Shown here piece by piece: positions 5,860 to 11,885 of a stretch of DNA of 22,237 bases. The number at the start of each line of letters is the position of its first letter. Position 1 is the first letter of the stretch. The notes below the pieces were generated by a model. It worked only from the letters and a program-made list of their open reading frames with translations. It was not told the origin of the DNA and did not search any database. This DNA comes from Candidatus Hermodarchaeota archaeon. Its GTDB lineage: Archaea > Asgardarchaeota > Lokiarchaeia > Sigyniarchaeales > SOKP01. The position numbers were made by a program, and so were the translations under genes. The stretch covers positions 1-22,237 of the forward strand of contig JBHLLO010000048.1 in NCBI GenBank assembly GCA_048885535.1, written 5' to 3'.

Positions 5860-6108
5860 TTGAAAAACTGGATTAAGCTAAACCTACTCCATCTCGGAAA
5901 ATCTAAGAAGCATTATATTTTCAGAGCTAAAAAATGGAATAAAAATTTTGAAATAATATTTCATAAACCTATTTACAATGAAAGTTATGAAAAGATTGGT
6001 ATTATCAATGAAATTTTTGGTCCTATCAAATTACCATTTATCTCTATAACAGCTTCACCTAATCAACATTTTAGTTTAGAAAGTCAATTCTATATTAAAA
6101 TCCGTTAA
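5860..6108 (+). CDS. gar1: H/ACA RNP protein Gar1 (Gar1/Naf1 family)
   Basis: KIGIINEIFGPIKLPFISI matches the archaeal Gar1 signature (GxVxDxFGPVxxPY); directly upstream of tfb, a common archaeal synteny; TTG start. Confidence 0.8.
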   Translation: MKNWIKLNLLHLGKSKKHYIFRAKKWNKNFEIIFHKPIYNESYEKIGIINEIFGPIKLPFISITASPNQHFSLESQFYIKIR

Positions 6109-6188
6109 AAAGTTCTCGGAATTTTAAAAATTCAAAATTTCAAAGGGTGTAAAATATTTCGAGTTTAAATCAACTAAATAATAAGCAG

Positions 6189-7106
6189 ATGAACGATGAT
6201 GCGGAGATTTGTACCGAATGTGGGAAAAACATTGTAAAAAGTGCTGATTCTTTGTTGGTTTGTGAAGAATGTGGTTTGGTTCATTCAGAAAGTCATATTG
6301 ATCGTGGTCCTGAATGGAGAGCATTCGATGCTGATCAAAAGAAAAAAAGAACTCGAACTGGAGCACCTATGACTTACATGATCCATGATAAGGGCTTAAG
6401 TACGATGATTGATTGGAAGAATAGAGATATTTTTGGTAAGGAGATTCCTGCTAAATCGAGGGGCCAAATTTATAGATTACGCAAATGGCAGAGTAGAATA
6501 AGAGTATCAGATGCAACAGAAAGAAATTTAACTTTTGCTTTAAGTGAGTTAGATCGGATGGCTTCTAATTTAGATTTACCTAAAAATCTTCGTGAATGTT
6601 CTGCAAAAATATATCGAGATGCAGTCGATGCCCATCTTATAAGAGGAAGGAGTATTGAGGGTGTGGCTGCTGCTAGTTTATATGCAGCATGTAGAATGTA
6701 TAAAATTCCCAGAACCTTGAATGAGATTGCTGAAGTAGCGCGAGTAGATAAAAAAGAAATCGGTAGATCCTTCCGTTTTATATCAAATGAATTGCTCCTT
6801 AACTTAAATCCAACAAAGCCTCTTGATTTTCTCACAAGATTTATATCTGAACTAAAACTTAGTCAGGAATGCCAAAAAGTAGCGAAAAAAATCATAAAAA
6901 TGGCAGAAGCCTATGGATTAACTTCAGGTAGAGGGCCCACGGGAGTTTGTGCTGCAGCTATATATGCAGCAAGTATATTAACTAAGGAAAGGAGAACTCA
7001 AAGAAAAATAGCAAATATAAGTCAAGTTACCGAGGTTACAGTTAGGAATAGATTTTCAGAATTAATAGAAAATTTAGATTTAGGTATTTCAATGAAAAAG
7101 AAATAA
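6189..7106 (+). CDS. tfb: Transcription initiation factor IIB (TFB)
   Basis: Zn ribbon CTECG...CEECG, B-reader [16 protein letters not shown], two cyclin repeats ([24 protein letters not shown]). May start at the in-frame ATT at 6156. Confidence 0.98.
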
Positions 7107-7228
7107 ATTCGATTTTAATTCTCTTGTATGTGTTTTAATTAAGAATGTTATCTCAATATTACAACCATTAAAGTTTGCTTTTTTTCAATTTTAAAATATC
7201 GGTTGTATATTGTGGATAGGTTACGATT

Positions 7229-7580
7229 TATGAAAATGGAGAAGACTAGGTTGATTAACCAGGGTGAGGTTAATTATTTTCTTCATAGAGTAAGAAGACA
7301 TTTTCCTAATTTTGTAGCAGGAGTTATTACAGATCGGAATGGTTTTCCTATTGGTTCAAGTATCTCAAATAGATTATGGGTCCACGAAAATACTTTAGCT
7401 ATATGGGCAATATCAAAAAATAAGGAGAGAGTAATAAAAGATCCAAACCTAGTTCAATTAAAGTTTGATATTGATAAAAATAAGAGATATAAACTATTTA
7501 TATTATTAGAGAAATCAAAGACTTATAAAAATGGAATAAAACCGCTAAAAGAAATTATTAAAACACAAGAACTATTCTAA
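7229..7580 (+). CDS. Hypothetical protein, probable divergent roadblock/LC7-like fold
   Basis: Helix followed by FVAGVITDRNGFPIGSS resembles the roadblock beta-hairpin motif; adjacent to a clear roadblock gene; start uncertain (7203/7229/7235). Confidence 0.5.
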
Positions 7581-7801
7581 ACCATTTCAACTATTGTTTT
7601 TTATTAAACGAAGTTTATTTGTATCCTAAGACGGATTAAAAATAAAGGAATTAAATTTTTATAGAATTAGTTTTATTTTTATTCATAAGTAATAATAAAG
7701 AATGAATTTGGGTTATTTAAAAGAATTTTATGCAAATACGTGTTGAAATCAATTTGGCAAAATTATGATGTCAAATTTAAATAATACTGAGGTAAAAGCT
7801 A

Positions 7802-8272
7802 TTGAGTTATTCTCAAGATGAGATGGAGTTAAAGAAAATTATACGTGATATAATCAATAGCACACCTGGTTTAAAAAATGTTATTCTTATTGATGATACA
7901 GGCATCACAATAATGAATGAAGCTAAATTTACTTTTTTAAACGAGGATGATATTTCAGTTGAGAAGATTGGTGCAATTGGTGGAGCTGTTTTTACAGCAG
8001 GAGAAGAACAAGGGCATATATTAGGATATGGAGAAATTAAACTTCAAATAACAGAATATTTTAAGGGTATGATTTTTTCTGTAAAAGTTGGCAAAGGAAT
8101 TCTCTGTATTGCTTCAGATAAGAATGTACAAATAGGGTTTGTACGTGCAATCATGAAAAAATATGCTCCTAAAATTACCCAAATTTTGGATCGCTACTTA
8201 AAATCCGATCAAGGCGAAATCAGCAAAGAATTAAAGGAGTTATTTAATTCAGATACCATTAGTTTATTATAA
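7802..8272 (+). CDS. Roadblock/LC7 (MglB/LAMTOR2-like) domain protein
   Basis: PGLKNVILIDDTGITI...EKIGAIGGAVFTAGEEQGHILGYGEIKLQITEYFKGMIF...NVQIGFVR is a typical roadblock pattern; TTG start after GAGGT SD-like motif. Confidence 0.88.
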   Translation: MSYSQDEMELKKIIRDIINSTPGLKNVILIDDTGITIMNEAKFTFLNEDDISVEKIGAIGGAVFTAGEEQGHILGYGEIKLQITEYFKGMIFSVKVGKGILCIASDKNVQIGFVRAIMKKYAPKITQILDRYLKSDQGEISKELKELFNSDTISLL

Positions 8273-8276
8273 TTAA

Positions 8277-8455
8277 TAATGTTGCCTAAAACACTAACTC
8301 TTTTTTATCATTTCACGGATAAACCTAGAATCAAAAAAGCTCTCTCGTGTTAGGCAAATTTGGGAGCATAATCTGTATCCTGTAAGGGTTACTGCCTATA
8401 ACTTCATCGCGTTGAAATTCTTCTTCGCTTAGTTAAGAGCCCATTTATCCAGGAT
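8277..8455 (-). ncRNA. Candidate two-hairpin box H/ACA guide RNA
   Basis: Hairpin 1: ATCCTG(8455-8450)/CAGGAT(8382-8377) followed immediately by ACA (8376-8374), with internal loop, TAACT/AGTTA stem and K-turn-like CTAA/GATGA capped by GCG/CGC. Hairpin 2: TGCCTAA(8356-8350)/TTAGGCA(8289-8283) followed by ACA (8282-8280), with internal loop, CTTTTT/AAAAAG stem and TGA/ATGAT K-turn. Folded by eye. Confidence 0.55.
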
Positions 8456-8467
8456 GAGTAATGATTA

Positions 8468-8560
8468 TTAAATTCAGGATGTTTGCATTTTTTTGCTCAT
8501 ATAATCATCATATTCATATATGTCCTCGAATAATGCAACTATTCCATCATCATATTCCCA
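8468..8560 (-). ncRNA. Candidate box C/D guide RNA with long spacers
   Basis: Box C ATGATGA (8553-8547), D' ATGA (8517-8514), C' ATGATGA (8511-8505), D CTGA (8477-8474) in canonical order; short terminal complementarity GAAT/ATTT. Confidence 0.55.
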
Positions 8561-8591
8561 CTAATATAATAAGAAGATATGGTTAATAAGT

Positions 8592-9344
8592 TTACATGTT
8601 CTTTTTAATAAGATTCAATATTTCTTCATAAGAACCAAGAATTTGTCGAATCTTAATATCATTTAAACCCTTATCTGGTTTACCTTCGAAAATAGCTTTC
8701 CCTTCATTCAAAAATAAGACTTTTTCAGCCCAATTTTCAACAAAGAAAAGATTATGTGTTGTAAATAGGATCGTTAATTTTTCTCTTTTTCTCAAATTCT
8801 CTAATATACTTAAATGATTAAATATTGATTTAAAGTCAAGGTTTGCGAAAGGTTCATCCAGAATTAATAATTTAGGTTTCATTACCAAAATCCCTGCCAG
8901 TGCAGCTCTCTTCTTTTGGCCCCAAGATAACTCAAATGGAGAATAATCCTTATAAGATAATAATTCTACAGCATCTAAGGCCCAATTCACTCGTCTATTT
9001 ACCTCTTTTTCATCTAGTTTTAAATTTCTAGCTCCAAATCCAACATCTTCCCCCACGGTTGGTGCAAATAGTTGATCATCTGGATTTTGAAATAGAAAGC
9101 CGAGTGATTTTCTTATTTCCCAAAGTTGTTTCTTATTCCTTGTCAGTAGCTGATTGAAAATTTTTATAGTTCCTGACTTTGGTTTTAATAAACCAACTAA
9201 TAATCTCAAAAGAGTGGTTTTTCCTGAACCATTATTTCCAATCAAGGCATAAATGGATTTTTCCTCCACTTTTAAACATAAATCTTTTATTTCAAATCCG
9301 GAATTGTATCTAAAATTAAGATCATGAACTTCTAGCGCAAAAAT
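8592..9344 (-). CDS. cbiO: ECF transporter ATPase (CbiO/NikO)
   Basis: Walker A GNNGSGKT, LFQNPDDQLFAPTV, LSWGQKKR, ILDEP, TTH. The frame stays open upstream of the GTG at 9269 and encodes the typical first strand (FALEVHDLNFRY), back to an ATT at 9344. Confidence 0.93.
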   Translation of the reverse strand: MFALEVHDLNFRYNSGFEIKDLCLKVEEKSIYALIGNNGSGKTTLLRLLVGLLKPKSGTIKIFNQLLTRNKKQLWEIRKSLGFLFQNPDDQLFAPTVGEDVGFGARNLKLDEKEVNRRVNWALDAVELLSYKDYSPFELSWGQKKRAALAGILVMKPKLLILDEPFANLDFKSIFNHLSILENLRKREKLTILFTTHNLFFVENWAEKVLFLNEGKAIFEGKPDKGLNDIKIRQILGSYEEILNLIKKNM

Positions 9345-10138
9345 AAATTAATAACCTCCATAAAGATTTGTTCTAAATTTACAAAATAAACTAAAAAGAT
9401 GATAGTACTTATAGTTAAAAAGAGCACAATATAGTCATATATTTTTAATTTTCTTGGAGCAAATGTAAGTTTTCCCGTAAATCCTCTCATTTTTAAACTC
9501 TCGTATAATTTTTCACTACGCTCCATATTGTTTACAATATTTTTTCCCATTATAAAAGCATGTGCTTTAACTCTCCGCCAATATGTTGCTGTATTCTTGC
9601 CCCTTAATTCTTGTGCATCTAACACTTTTTTATTAGAAATTGCGAGGATTGGAATGTAATGAAGCATTATTACTATAGCCCCTATGATAAATGAAGGAAC
9701 AATTCTGATTGTAGTCAATGCTTCGATAAATTCAGAATATGTTAAAGAAGAAAAAAATGTAAGAAAAGTAAAAGTTGCACCAATAATCCTAAGGAATAGA
9801 AGTAATGCCATTTTTAATCCTTCATAATAAACTGTTAAAGTTATACCTATATTTGATTGGAATACAATAGTATGACCAAAATAGAATGGTATGAATGTGC
9901 AAATAAGCAATAGAAACGGAATTAGAATTTTTAGTCTTGAGATGATCTTTACTATATTCAATTGGAAAAAAACATTAATACAAATTACAATAAAAGTAAT
10001 TATTGTAACCAGATATAAATCATTGAATAACAAAAATGGTAATACTAGGATAAAAGGTATTAGAAATCTAATTATAGGGTGCAATTTATTAAAAATGTTT
10101 GTCTCATTTTCAGTTTTAAAAGGTAAATTTGTTTTCAT
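9332..10138 (-). CDS. cbiQ: ECF transporter transmembrane T component (CbiQ/NikQ)
   Basis: Hydrophobic; LHPIIR, AQELRG and ERSEKLYESLKMRGF coupling motifs; overlaps the ATPase gene. Confidence 0.92.
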   Translation of the reverse strand: MKTNLPFKTENETNIFNKLHPIIRFLIPFILVLPFLLFNDLYLVTIITFIVICINVFFQLNIVKIISRLKILIPFLLLICTFIPFYFGHTIVFQSNIGITLTVYYEGLKMALLLFLRIIGATFTFLTFFSSLTYSEFIEALTTIRIVPSFIIGAIVIMLHYIPILAISNKKVLDAQELRGKNTATYWRRVKAHAFIMGKNIVNNMERSEKLYESLKMRGFTGKLTFAPRKLKIYDYIVLFLTISTIIFLVYFVNLEQIFMEVINLFLR

Positions 10139-11285: not shown

Positions 11286-11885
11286 ATGAAAGTTTTTTTT
11301 TTCATCAAATCAGGAAGTGTAAATGTTTCAAACTATACAATTAAAGATATTCCAGGTTCTTCTGGAAGATTAGATGTAATATCAAGATGCATTTTAGCCG
11401 CTATCCTAAATGAAAATGGATTTGAAAAATACATACAAATTTGGGTATTTTTAGAAAAATATGGTACATTTATTTTTGAACCAAAATCATTAGATTACGA
11501 TTTATTTCCTAAAAATGAAATACTACTTACAGATTACTTTGTTGATATAATAAAAAATAGAGATGGAAGGTTAAAAGATACTAATAATCCCTTAAAAGAT
11601 GTTAAATATTTCAATACTGATATTTTTACAATGATAAATGATTTCATTAATAAGGACTACTCTATATATGTATTAAATGAAAGTGGAGCAGATTTCTTTG
11701 AATTTTTAGATGAGATATTATCAAAAAAGAATATTATTTTTATCATTGGTAGTCAGACTGGTGAGATAATAAAATCAAAAGAATTAATTGAGTTAAATCT
11801 ACCTAATTTAAGTTTAGGAACTCAATCATATTTAGCTTCTTCTGTAATTCGATTAATAAGGATAAATCTAAGCTTAGAGATATGA
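11286..11885 (+). CDS. trmY: tRNA (pseudouridine54-N1)-methyltransferase, SPOUT class
   Basis: DIPGSSGRLDVISRC motif; C-terminal FIIGS and LSLGTQSYLASSVI SPOUT knot; divergent central part. Confidence 0.8.
   Translation: MKVFFFIKSGSVNVSNYTIKDIPGSSGRLDVISRCILAAILNENGFEKYIQIWVFLEKYGTFIFEPKSLDYDLFPKNEILLTDYFVDIIKNRDGRLKDTNNPLKDVKYFNTDIFTMINDFINKDYSIYVLNESGADFFEFLDEILSKKNIIFIIGSQTGEIIKSKELIELNLPNLSLGTQSYLASSVIRLIRINLSLEI

Follow-up and report, generated by a model that had tools for sequence, protein, structure and literature searches.

A conserved RNA gene of Asgard archaea that may encode a composite C/D-H/ACA guide RNA

The window examined here is a stretch of 22,237 nucleotides (nt) that makes up contig C48 (JBHLLO010000048.1) of a Candidatus Hermodarchaeota archaeon, an Asgard archaeon whose genome (GCA_048885535.1) comprises 3.09 Mb in 112 contigs. 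Between a roadblock/LAMTOR-like gene and a gene for a CbiO-type ATP-binding cassette (ABC) ATPase, which are convergent, there is a gap that is filled by an RNA unit. Conservation in related genomes confirms that this gap holds a real gene for a non-coding RNA of ~290 nt, predicted to lie at 8274-8563 of the minus strand. The unit begins ~30 nt past the stop codon of the cbiO-like gene. It has three parts: unit 1, a rod-like hairpin with a C/D-type kink-turn (K-turn) at its base and a kink-loop (K-loop) at its tip, followed by two H/ACA-type hairpins, HP1 and HP2. The coordinates of these and of the neighboring features are given in Table 1. The original prediction, made from the sequence alone, had placed a C/D-type unit and then two hairpins on the minus strand of this gap, and all of the elements were found in their places with the coordinates verified. 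The gap was also considered as a possible RNase P RNA or signal recognition particle (SRP) RNA. This was rejected, as an RNase P RNA and an SRP-like RNA sit elsewhere in the genome.

Table 1. Features of the RNA gene and its surroundings in the window (ORF, open reading frame)
Feature	Position	Strand	Remark
Gap between genes	8273-8591	minus (RNA)	no ORF of at least 50 amino acids inside
Unit 1, C/D-type rod	8459-8563	minus	R1 covariance-model match
Unit 1 stem I	8552-8556 with 8469-8473	minus	
Unit 1 C box AUGAUGG	8544-8550	minus	its GA makes sheared pairs with the D box
Unit 1 internal helix UGCA/UGCA	8534-8537 with 8484-8487	minus	joins the two spacers
Unit 1 UUCGAGG	8524-8530	minus	most conserved single-stranded motif of unit 1
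Unit 1 apical hairpin	stem 8517-8523 with 8497-8503; K-loop UGA 8514-8516 and UGAU 8504-8507	minus	
Unit 1 D box CUGA	8474-8477	minus	
Linker UAAUCA, unit 1 to HP1	8462-8467	minus	identical in 35/40
HP1, H/ACA-type hairpin	8368-8457	minus	R2 model matches 40/40
HP1 basal stem	8450-8455 with 8377-8382	minus	internal loop above
HP1 middle stem	8437-8441 with 8394-8398	minus	weakened in the window's genome
HP1 K-turn GAUGA	8404-8408	minus	
HP1 AACCC, 3' loop strand	8386-8390	minus	conserved
HP1 ACA box	8374-8376	minus	
HP2, H/ACA-type hairpin	8274-8359	minus	R3 model matches 40/40
HP2 basal stem	8350-8355 with 8284-8289	minus	
HP2 5' pocket strand	8340-8349	minus	
HP2 upper stem	8333-8339 with 8300-8306	minus	
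HP2 K-turn	GA 8331-8332 and UGA 8308-8310	minus	
HP2 3' pocket strand GUUAGUG	8292-8298	minus	
HP2 ACA box	8280-8282	minus	
A/T-rich box, candidate archaeal BRE/TATA promoter	8582-8594	minus	overlaps the cbiO-like stop codon; centre ~27 nt before the conserved GGG that opens unit 1
CbiO-type ABC ATPase	8592-9269	minus	CbiQ follows
Roadblock/LAMTOR-like ORF	7802-8272	plus	weak Pfam match, below cut-off
TFB	6189-7106		upstream of gap
gar1	5860-6108		upstream of gap

The gap DNA aligns by BLAST over nearly its full length, at 67-88% identity, in 20 of the 24 other genomes of the same genus, and the flanking proteins in these loci are 60-90% identical. By the same method it was found in none of 16 genomes of other families. 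Two sets of alignments were used. The MAFFT alignments contain 20 same-genus loci and were not fitted to any structure. The 40-locus set is made up of these 20 loci and 20 loci from 12 other genera (13 genera in all); it was fitted with covariance models and leans toward the proposed structure. For all three units in the MAFFT alignments, none of 500 shuffles reached the observed covariation score, and sliding one strand against its partner lowered the pairing to 8-68%. In controls with a displaced 3' partner, pairing reached 50% at most, compared with 91-96% in the actual structures. Every proposed helix retains its pairing through two-sided changes. It is because of conservation, not thermodynamics, that the RNA is considered real beyond chance: the fold of the whole gap does not surpass that of shuffles (z score -0.69), and the single units give -0.29 (unit 1), -1.81 (HP1), and -2.77 (HP2). 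The original prediction had pointed to conserved boxes and compensatory changes in related genomes as the mark of a genuine RNA. The boxes are indeed kept and all of the helices covary.

The RNA is widespread in its archaeal family. The models for unit 1, HP1, and HP2 (R1, R2, and R3) each match 20 of 20 loci of the 12 other genera, with constant order, strand, and spacing, and in all 40 loci of the 13 genera the order is unit 1, HP1, HP2 on one strand. One full-length copy of R1 is present in 119 of the 131 genomes of the family (13 genera). With the strict filters of the large searches, R1 had no match in 19 genomes from the order's three other families. Among 66 named Promethearchaeota loci that were reached via the roadblock-like protein, 61 contain R1 and 62 contain R3. 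The HP2 model is found in 113 of 126 genomes of the family and also in eight genomes in five other families of the class (f2, f3, f4, f5, and f7), but none of the order's three single-contig genomes (G032, G038, and G033) gave a match. In these eight out-of-family loci the letters of the HP2 pocket are retained and the basal stems differ. HP1 is recognizable in two of them, and five have a weak match that resembles unit 1, with UCGAGG, 100-135 nt upstream on the same strand (E 0.002-0.49). On these weak matches, the composite RNA may be older than the family. In one genome a second HP2-like copy stands alone beside the roadblock-like gene, ~500 nt from the complete unit (L116:1471-1556), and G053 also has two R3 matches.

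The presence of the RNA in a natural RNA sample was explored through public sequencing runs. A total of 15 runs share words with the stretch 7200-9600. One of these is an RNA library, the wetland metatranscriptome X12 (share 0.05), and the remaining 14 are DNA or of unknown type, mostly with small shares. Seventeen X12 contigs fit at 80% likeness, and those on the RNA cover 8340-8538. A contig of 199 nt, with four differences, spans that whole range, from inside unit 1 through HP1 into HP2. Another contig, of 145 nt and with a depth of 121.7, covers 8462-8529 and extends by a further 31 letters, whose counterpart in the relatives is the 5' side of HP1. Its far end presumably consists of sequencing adapter letters, and the contig seems to come from a short insert. 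Because the contigs carry neither strand nor ends, and DNA is possible in an RNA library, they show presence in an RNA sample and continuity across the unit borders rather than a mapped transcript. The genes on either side were almost bare of X12 contigs, to which no weight is given, as a part without cover proves nothing. The conserved RNA gene is probably expressed.

A start for such a transcript can be proposed. The A/T-rich box upstream of unit 1, an AAA-T-rich-AA motif, is kept across the 20-locus alignment and is a plausible archaeal promoter. It is also present in four of the five loci that have no cbiO match on that side (L007, L012, L013, and L014); in L016 it deviates. The original prediction had considered that the RNA might be processed from the 3' end of the cbiQO mRNA. 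This now appears unlikely, as the RNA has its own promoter-like box, persists without a cbiO neighbor, and is inverted whole in 20 of 61 loci. The position of the unit, which occupies the gap of two convergent genes and follows so closely on the cbiO-like stop codon, would also suit a cis-acting 3' untranslated region or terminator of the cbiO-like and roadblock-like genes that is kept for mRNA stability or termination. In addition, the 20 inverted loci have the RNA on the strand of the roadblock-like gene, ~100-570 nt downstream of that gene; in the other 41 of the 61 it is convergent with this gene, as in the window. It is difficult to reconcile such a role with the inversion of the block as a whole. 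Moreover, the unit is kept without an adjacent cbiO match (L004, L007, L012, L013, L014, and L016) and without an adjacent roadblock-like match (L005, L015, and L020, with L015 at a contig end). Its identity, when set beside that of the flanking proteins, is deeper than an intergenic spacer should show, and box and K-turn motifs would be useless to a terminator. A terminator or 3' untranslated region is therefore highly improbable and close to refuted.

From base to tip, unit 1 consists of a terminal stem of 4-5 base pairs (bp), the C/D K-turn, a stem II of 3 bp, an internal loop, and a 4-bp helix that joins the two spacers. Above this helix are a second internal loop with a near-invariant UCGAGG, a stem of 6-7 bp, and the K-loop. 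In the 40-sequence alignment the unit has 18 pairs, 12 of them two-sided, with 94.7% of 693 cells paired, and none of 500 shuffles was as high on all five measures. The GA of the C box is invariant (40/40); AUGAUGG itself is found in 24 of 40 copies, and the others differ solely at positions 5 and 6. The D box has its GA in 37 of 40 and reads CUGA in 20 of 40. A C/D K-turn with a terminal stem, of the RUGAUGA/CUGA type, can thus be recognized, with G rather than A as the last base of the C box. Stem I and stem II covary, one pair being C-G, U-A, or U-G and another G-C, G-U, or A-U. In the internal helix three of the four pairs are two-sided (the inner pair is A-U, G-C, or U-A, and one G-C becomes A-U). 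The apical stem has seven pairs in the MAFFT alignment, 93% paired and four two-sided, and five of the seven are two-sided in the 40-sequence alignment. At its top, an internal C'/D' motif is formed by UGA (31/40) opposite GAU (28/40) over a loop of 7-9 nt. Five loci of other genera have the K-loop swapped for a longer stem with an internal K-turn-like motif. Swaps between K-loops and K-turns are usual at L7Ae sites.

The two spacers of unit 1 are paired to one another, and it is therefore not a canonical methylation guide. The spacers of C/D guides normally are ~12 nt long. These guides have an antisense element of at least 9 nt directly 5' of D or D', and the target lies at its fifth base. 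The spacers of unit 1 are 28 and 24 nt long and, instead of being single-stranded, are paired by the covarying 4-bp helix and the extended K-loop stem. Beside D only ACAUC is conserved and the next two bases are hypervariable, and the bases beside D' sit in a covarying stem; neither place offers a usable antisense element. None of the duplexes of unit 1 with ribosomal RNA (rRNA) was better than those of shuffles. The strict C-D'-C'-D pattern had no matches in the organism's own genome; shuffles gave none either, hence this search is uninformative. The open C-D'-C'-D layout of the original prediction does not hold in this form. What had been taken for internal boxes are the two sides of a K-loop at the end of a covarying stem of 6-7 bp, and the long spacers pair mutually. 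Compared with archaeal box C/D small RNAs (sRNAs), unit 1 shares a C/D K-turn closed by a short terminal stem, an internal K-loop of D'/C'-like halves, and a host genome with genes for the L7Ae partners fibrillarin and Nop5. It differs in that the spacers (28 and 24 nt) are paired, the K-loop has a stem II that is longer by 6-7 bp, and only 5-6 conserved bases lie beside D and none beside D'.

The two hairpins can be compared with what is required of an H/ACA guide. Excerpts of two publications (PMC7991803; PMC7075261) give an ANA box past the hairpin and a distance of ~15 ± 1 nt from the box to the last guide base that is paired 5' of the target uridine. For the pocket, a minimum of 3 bp per side and of 8 bp in total is required (excerpt of PMC7991803), and the K-turn stands 5-6 layers (excerpt of PMC7991803) or 9-10 layers (excerpt of PMC7075261) above the pocket. 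In the Asgard RNA an ANA follows both hairpins in 40 of 40 loci, and the basal stems covary. Pocket letters lie at a fixed distance from the box in both hairpins while the basal stems below them covary.

HP1 has 17 pairs. In the MAFFT alignment these are 97.5% paired, and nine are two-sided, including five of the six basal pairs; in the 40 sequences 12 of the 17 are two-sided, and the basal stem is 97% paired with all six pairs two-sided. Its box is ACA in 28, AUA in 11, and AAA in one of the 40 copies. In 39 of 40 copies a CCC begins at a distance of 12 nt on the 5' side of the box. The conserved A before it lies at 13 nt from the box (14 if AACCC, as in the window), which is borderline for the 14-16 nt rule. 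All 40 copies have the G of GAUGA in the K-turn, but most show A-A or A-U as the second sheared pair. HP2 has 19 pairs, 90.5% paired with five two-sided in the MAFFT alignment and 91% paired with seven two-sided in the 40 sequences; 41 of 500 shuffles reach the pair count and none of the 500 reaches the other measures. Its box, one base past the stem, is ACA in 36 and AAA in three of 40, with one copy gapped. The pocket is nearly invariant: the 5' strand is identical in 36 of 40 and the 3' strand, its first letter aside, in 39 of 40. Thirty copies have a GUUAGUG that starts 16 nt before the box, and eight have it at 17 nt. The K-turn of HP2 stands above 7 bp, an extra U, and two G-A pairs, for a total of 9-10 layers, which fits the value in the excerpt of PMC7075261. 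The basal stem, internal pocket, upper stem, K-turn-like motif, and ACA that had been described for both hairpins were all located, with covarying helices. The three units are co-oriented, and the gaps between them, given before as ~17-18 nt, were measured at ~13-18 nt.

Some variation is found around the hairpins. The spacer between HP1 and HP2 contains an extra hairpin of ~30 nt, with a GA...GA arrangement that resembles a K-turn, in L005-L020 and in most of the loci of other genera. It is absent from the window (8360-8373) and from L002-L004, and was apparently lost in the window's genome and its three closest relatives. UGAUUAU follows the first ANA box in 29 of 40 loci (8368-8373 in the window, where the first U is missing). 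In most relatives the first box and UGAUUAU together read as an H-box-like ANANNA. The 5' pocket strand of HP2 reads like most of the sarcin-ricin loop motif in the large subunit (LSU) rRNA, in the sense and not the antisense direction, possibly by chance. In one out-of-family locus (L100:801-886) this identity is one base longer.

Among described RNAs, the pair of hairpins most closely resembles sR-h45 of Haloferax volcanii, an RNA that was reportedly first described by Blaby et al. in 2011. The resemblance lies in the build. Both RNAs have two K-turn hairpins, and in the Asgard RNA HP1 is followed by ANA and HP2 by ACA; in sR-h45 an AUA that is part of an H box comes after the 5' stem-loop, and ACA comes after the 3' stem-loop (excerpt of PMC7075261). 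The H box of sR-h45 has its counterpart in an H-box-like ANANNA, made up of the box and UGA in 34 of 40 loci but not in the window's copy, and most relatives have between the hairpins a structured spacer that recalls the one in sR-h45. What sets the Asgard RNA apart is a C/D-type K-turn domain of 105 nt that is fused at its 5' side. Orthology with sR-h45 may be proposed from the architecture and the target, not from the sequence. The H/ACA part appears to be a double-hairpin archaeal guide of known type, found here in Asgard archaea, and as far as the searches go the fusion with a C/D rod is undescribed for archaea. The literature searched, which misses most subscription journals, contains essentially nothing on guide RNAs of Asgard archaea and describes none of such a build; the original prediction had likewise held that guide RNAs of Asgard archaea are poorly described.

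We favor as moderately probable that the gene encodes one composite C/D-H/ACA guide RNA. The original prediction had left the choice between a chimeric and a polycistronic C/D and H/ACA guide transcript. The chimeric form gains from the single conserved block and from the contigs that cross the unit borders, and what has to be given up is the canonical methylation guide in unit 1. A polycistronic cluster would be co-transcribed and trimmed into three ribonucleoproteins (RNPs), one C/D-like and two with single-hairpin H/ACA sRNAs. A single hairpin is the commonest form of archaeal H/ACA sRNA according to an excerpt of PMC7991803, every unit closes on itself and has a K-turn and a box of its own, and the solitary extra HP2 copy in one genome agrees with units that stand alone. 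The depth of X12 is also uneven: unit 1 and the beginning of HP1 have 133 and 59 and the part beyond has 12, though contig depth is a poor measure. Against trimming, the most abundant X12 contig spans the border of unit 1 and HP1, the 199-nt contig reaches from unit 1 to HP2, both linkers are conserved (UAAUCA in 35 and UGAUUAU in 29 of 40 loci), and order and spacing are fixed in 40 of 40. A trimmed cluster is thus considered unlikely.

Targets for a composite guide had to be read from relatives. The organism's own genome has no assembled rRNA, and the LSU and small subunit (SSU) rRNAs were taken from two genomes of the same genus, G017 and G008. The LSU genes of these two genomes (L021 and L022) have 3,334 and 3,368 nt compared with the 2,987 positions of the archaeal LSU model, and contain large expansions. 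Bipartite H/ACA scans (anchored and free, with G-U pairs allowed), exact antisense words, and duplex energies gave nothing above shuffled or reversed controls. A restricted scan followed the published geometry and accepted only Watson-Crick pairs: the first pair had to fall 14-17 nt from the box, the target could have 2-5 unpaired bases, and the guide at most two below the upper stem. Across all 1,069 uridines of LSU and SSU of a same-genus genome, helix 69 was the sole top site for 39 of 40 HP2 copies, with a score of 9-10. The two uridines here are presumably the equivalents of E. coli U1915 and U1917, as judged by alignment to the E. coli sequence. In a first register GUUA pairs with the UAAC before the first uridine, and in a second register UAGU pairs with the ACUA before the second. 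GAGAG pairs with the CUCUC strand of helix 69, so that the two sides of the pocket contribute 4 bp and 5-6 bp, all Watson-Crick. The first paired guide base lies 16 nt (30/40) or 17 nt (8/40) from ACA, and two fewer in the second register, consistent with the 14-16 nt rule.

In sR-h45 the second stem-loop guides both uridines of helix 69, with UNUN unpaired (excerpt of PMC7075261). HP2 likewise fits two helix-69 uridines with several unpaired target bases, five of them and not four as in sR-h45. The weight of the assignment comes from the fact that the sole best site is a rare, known guide-dependent archaeal position, at the right distance, in the hairpin equivalent to the second stem-loop. 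We give about even chances that HP2 guides the pseudouridylation of helix 69. Several points weigh against it. The match is only 9-10 bp and by its score alone lacks significance, and 11-39% of shuffled pockets reach this score somewhere in the rRNAs. When G-U pairs are allowed, other sites outscore helix 69. The fifth unpaired base is a departure from sR-h45. The 40 copies of HP2 amount to one observation, as the pocket is nearly invariant, and helix 69 is identical in seven LSU genes of six genera and two families and consequently offers no guide-target covariation. In two genomes the surroundings of this helix are altered. The LSU of G075 (L086/L087) has an insertion of ~30 nt directly 3' of helix 69, and in the LSU of G154 (L110) the helix-69 region is interrupted; either could be an intron or an expansion segment.

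HP1 may be a second guide. The first stem-loop of sR-h45 guides the third uridine of a UUU in 23S rRNA, and the two preceding uridines pair with two adenosines of the 3' pocket strand (excerpt of PMC7075261). In HP1 the A(A)CCC is complementary to the GGGU(U) ahead of the UUU of the peptidyl-transferase ring, where this uridine lies. The difference from sR-h45 is that HP1 has no 5'-side pairing to the target. Its 5' pocket strand has no partner beside any GGGU site. When one side alone was scanned, only 18 of 40 copies had the peptidyl-transferase UUU as their best or tied-best site, and the copy in the window scores higher at another LSU site. The assignment of HP1 to this UUU is therefore tentative and rather doubtful.

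Unit 1 also offers a possible contact with the same region. Its loop motif reads UCGAGG in 36, ACGAGG in three, and CCGAGG in one of 40 copies, and is kept in loci of other families as well. UCGAGG is complementary to CCUCGA in the peptidyl-transferase ring, which in G017 occurs once in LSU and never in SSU, and the ACAUC beside the D box is complementary to the GAUGU that adjoins CCUCGA (LSU segment CCUCGAUGU). A complement of 6-7 nt is expected by chance about once per three tries in 4.8 kb, and the UCGAGG match is not significant alone. This possible contact is a lead rather than a finding. Other candidates were dropped. An A-loop target for the D-side spacer fits only L011, L013, and L016, which have GU at the two hypervariable positions. 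Four further matches were set aside as chance or unconserved. In SSU these were 12 nt of the HP1 K-turn region and 12 bp of the unit 1 spacer, the latter near the 3' end of SSU; in LSU they were a one-sided HP2 match of 10 bp near 424 and a site near 841 that in one genome is C, not U.

The claim of guide function made in the original prediction can be upheld in part: complementarity to a target was found only for HP2 and it is statistically weak. Further points weigh against a composite guide. An Rfam scan of the whole window gave no family at the gathering score, and a scan of the gap only gave chance-level small nucleolar RNA (snoRNA) matches with E of at least 0.24. The K-turn of HP1 stands 11-12 layers above the internal loop (6 if the middle stem is taken as part of the pocket), compared with the published 5-6 or 9-10. 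To these are added the paired spacers and missing antisense elements of unit 1, the reading of targets from relatives, the one-sided match of HP1, and the limits of the X12 contigs, all described above. An alternative is an orphan structural RNA, rich in L7Ae, that would catalyze neither pseudouridylation nor methylation. It would serve as a scaffold or chaperone while ribosomes are assembled, where it might keep helix 69 or the peptidyl-transferase ring open, or as an L7Ae buffer. Four or five K-turn-type motifs are present within 290 nt, and the two pocket strands of HP2 match in length and could for the most part zip up into a rod that contains G-A mismatches. The complementarities to targets are short, with scores not above those of shuffled controls; no target was found to pair with both sides of the HP1 pocket, and unit 1 lacks a usable antisense element. 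A scaffold alone would leave unexplained the ANA boxes, which are precisely where Cbf5 needs them after both hairpins in 40 of 40 loci, and the pocket letters at a fixed distance from these boxes. The top Watson-Crick site of HP2 is, moreover, one of the few known guide-dependent sites in archaeal rRNA (excerpt of PMC7075261). An orphan scaffold is thus judged to be quite improbable.

The composite guide may also be compared with eukaryotic RNAs. The 3' domain of the U3 snoRNA has a C'/D K-turn at its base and a B/C K-turn higher up. Unit 1 has a likeness to it in architecture only, as a rod with a basal K-turn and a distal motif of the L7Ae/Snu13 type that is not itself a methylation guide, and it differs in having no 5' domain of boxes that pair with pre-rRNA. 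Eukaryotic composite small Cajal body-specific RNAs (scaRNAs), for example U85, have a C/D domain wrapped around an H/ACA domain. The Asgard RNA is similar to these in that a C/D-type K-turn domain and H/ACA hairpins are present in one RNA. The differences are that its C/D domain is a self-contained 5' module of doubtful guide function, that its hairpins are of the archaeal K-turn type, that CAB boxes are not at issue, and that its likely target is rRNA and not small nuclear RNA. An excerpt of a review states that scaRNAs do not exist in archaea (PMC7991803).

The genome possesses genes for several of the proteins that such an RNA would need. A Cbf5-like TruB, Gar1, fibrillarin, and Nop5 are all encoded, and gar1 lies in the window ~2.2 kb from the RNA, as had been noted before. 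The order gar1, TFB, small ORF, roadblock-like gene, and RNA is kept in most same-genus loci (5860-8272 in the window; L002-L020). The gar1 gene therefore stays at this distance, and the linkage could be functional or inherited. On the other side, 2.7 kb from the RNA and past cbiM/N-like genes, there is an ORF on the plus strand (11286-11885) with a Methyltrn_RNA_2 domain (E 8e-12) that encodes a putative SAM-dependent RNA methyltransferase.

If the RNA is a composite guide, the single-copy gene would give one RNA of ~290 nt with four K-turn-type motifs. The 3' two-thirds, HP1 and HP2, would act as a double-hairpin box H/ACA guide with a build similar to that of sR-h45. Each hairpin could carry L7Ae on its K-turn and Cbf5-Nop10-Gar1 on its basal stem and ACA box. 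HP2 would set the two helix-69 uridines at the active site of Cbf5, and HP1 would be a second guide, possibly for the peptidyl-transferase-ring UUU that is modified by the 5' hairpin of sR-h45. Unit 1 most likely binds L7Ae, and perhaps Nop5-fibrillarin, and we infer for it a role in assembly, stability, or docking.

The locus gives an alignable, single-copy RNA gene in more than 100 genomes, and the universally conserved pseudouridines of helix 69 are a testable target. Its fused C/D-type domain is a trait that the review literature assigns to eukaryotes, in the form of scaRNA. A bolder possibility, which is unlikely on present evidence, is that Promethearchaeia possess a true composite particle. 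In this, an L7Ae-Nop5-fibrillarin module and two Cbf5 modules would sit on a single RNA, and the particle would dock on the functional core of a nascent LSU with UCGAGG on CCUCGA, HP1 on GGGUUU, and HP2 on helix 69. Such a particle, if true, would be a prokaryotic forerunner of the composite guide RNAs and assembly-chaperone snoRNAs of eukaryotes. The covariance models can be used to annotate Asgard genomes, and they provide a route to asking whether composite guide RNPs predate eukaryotes.

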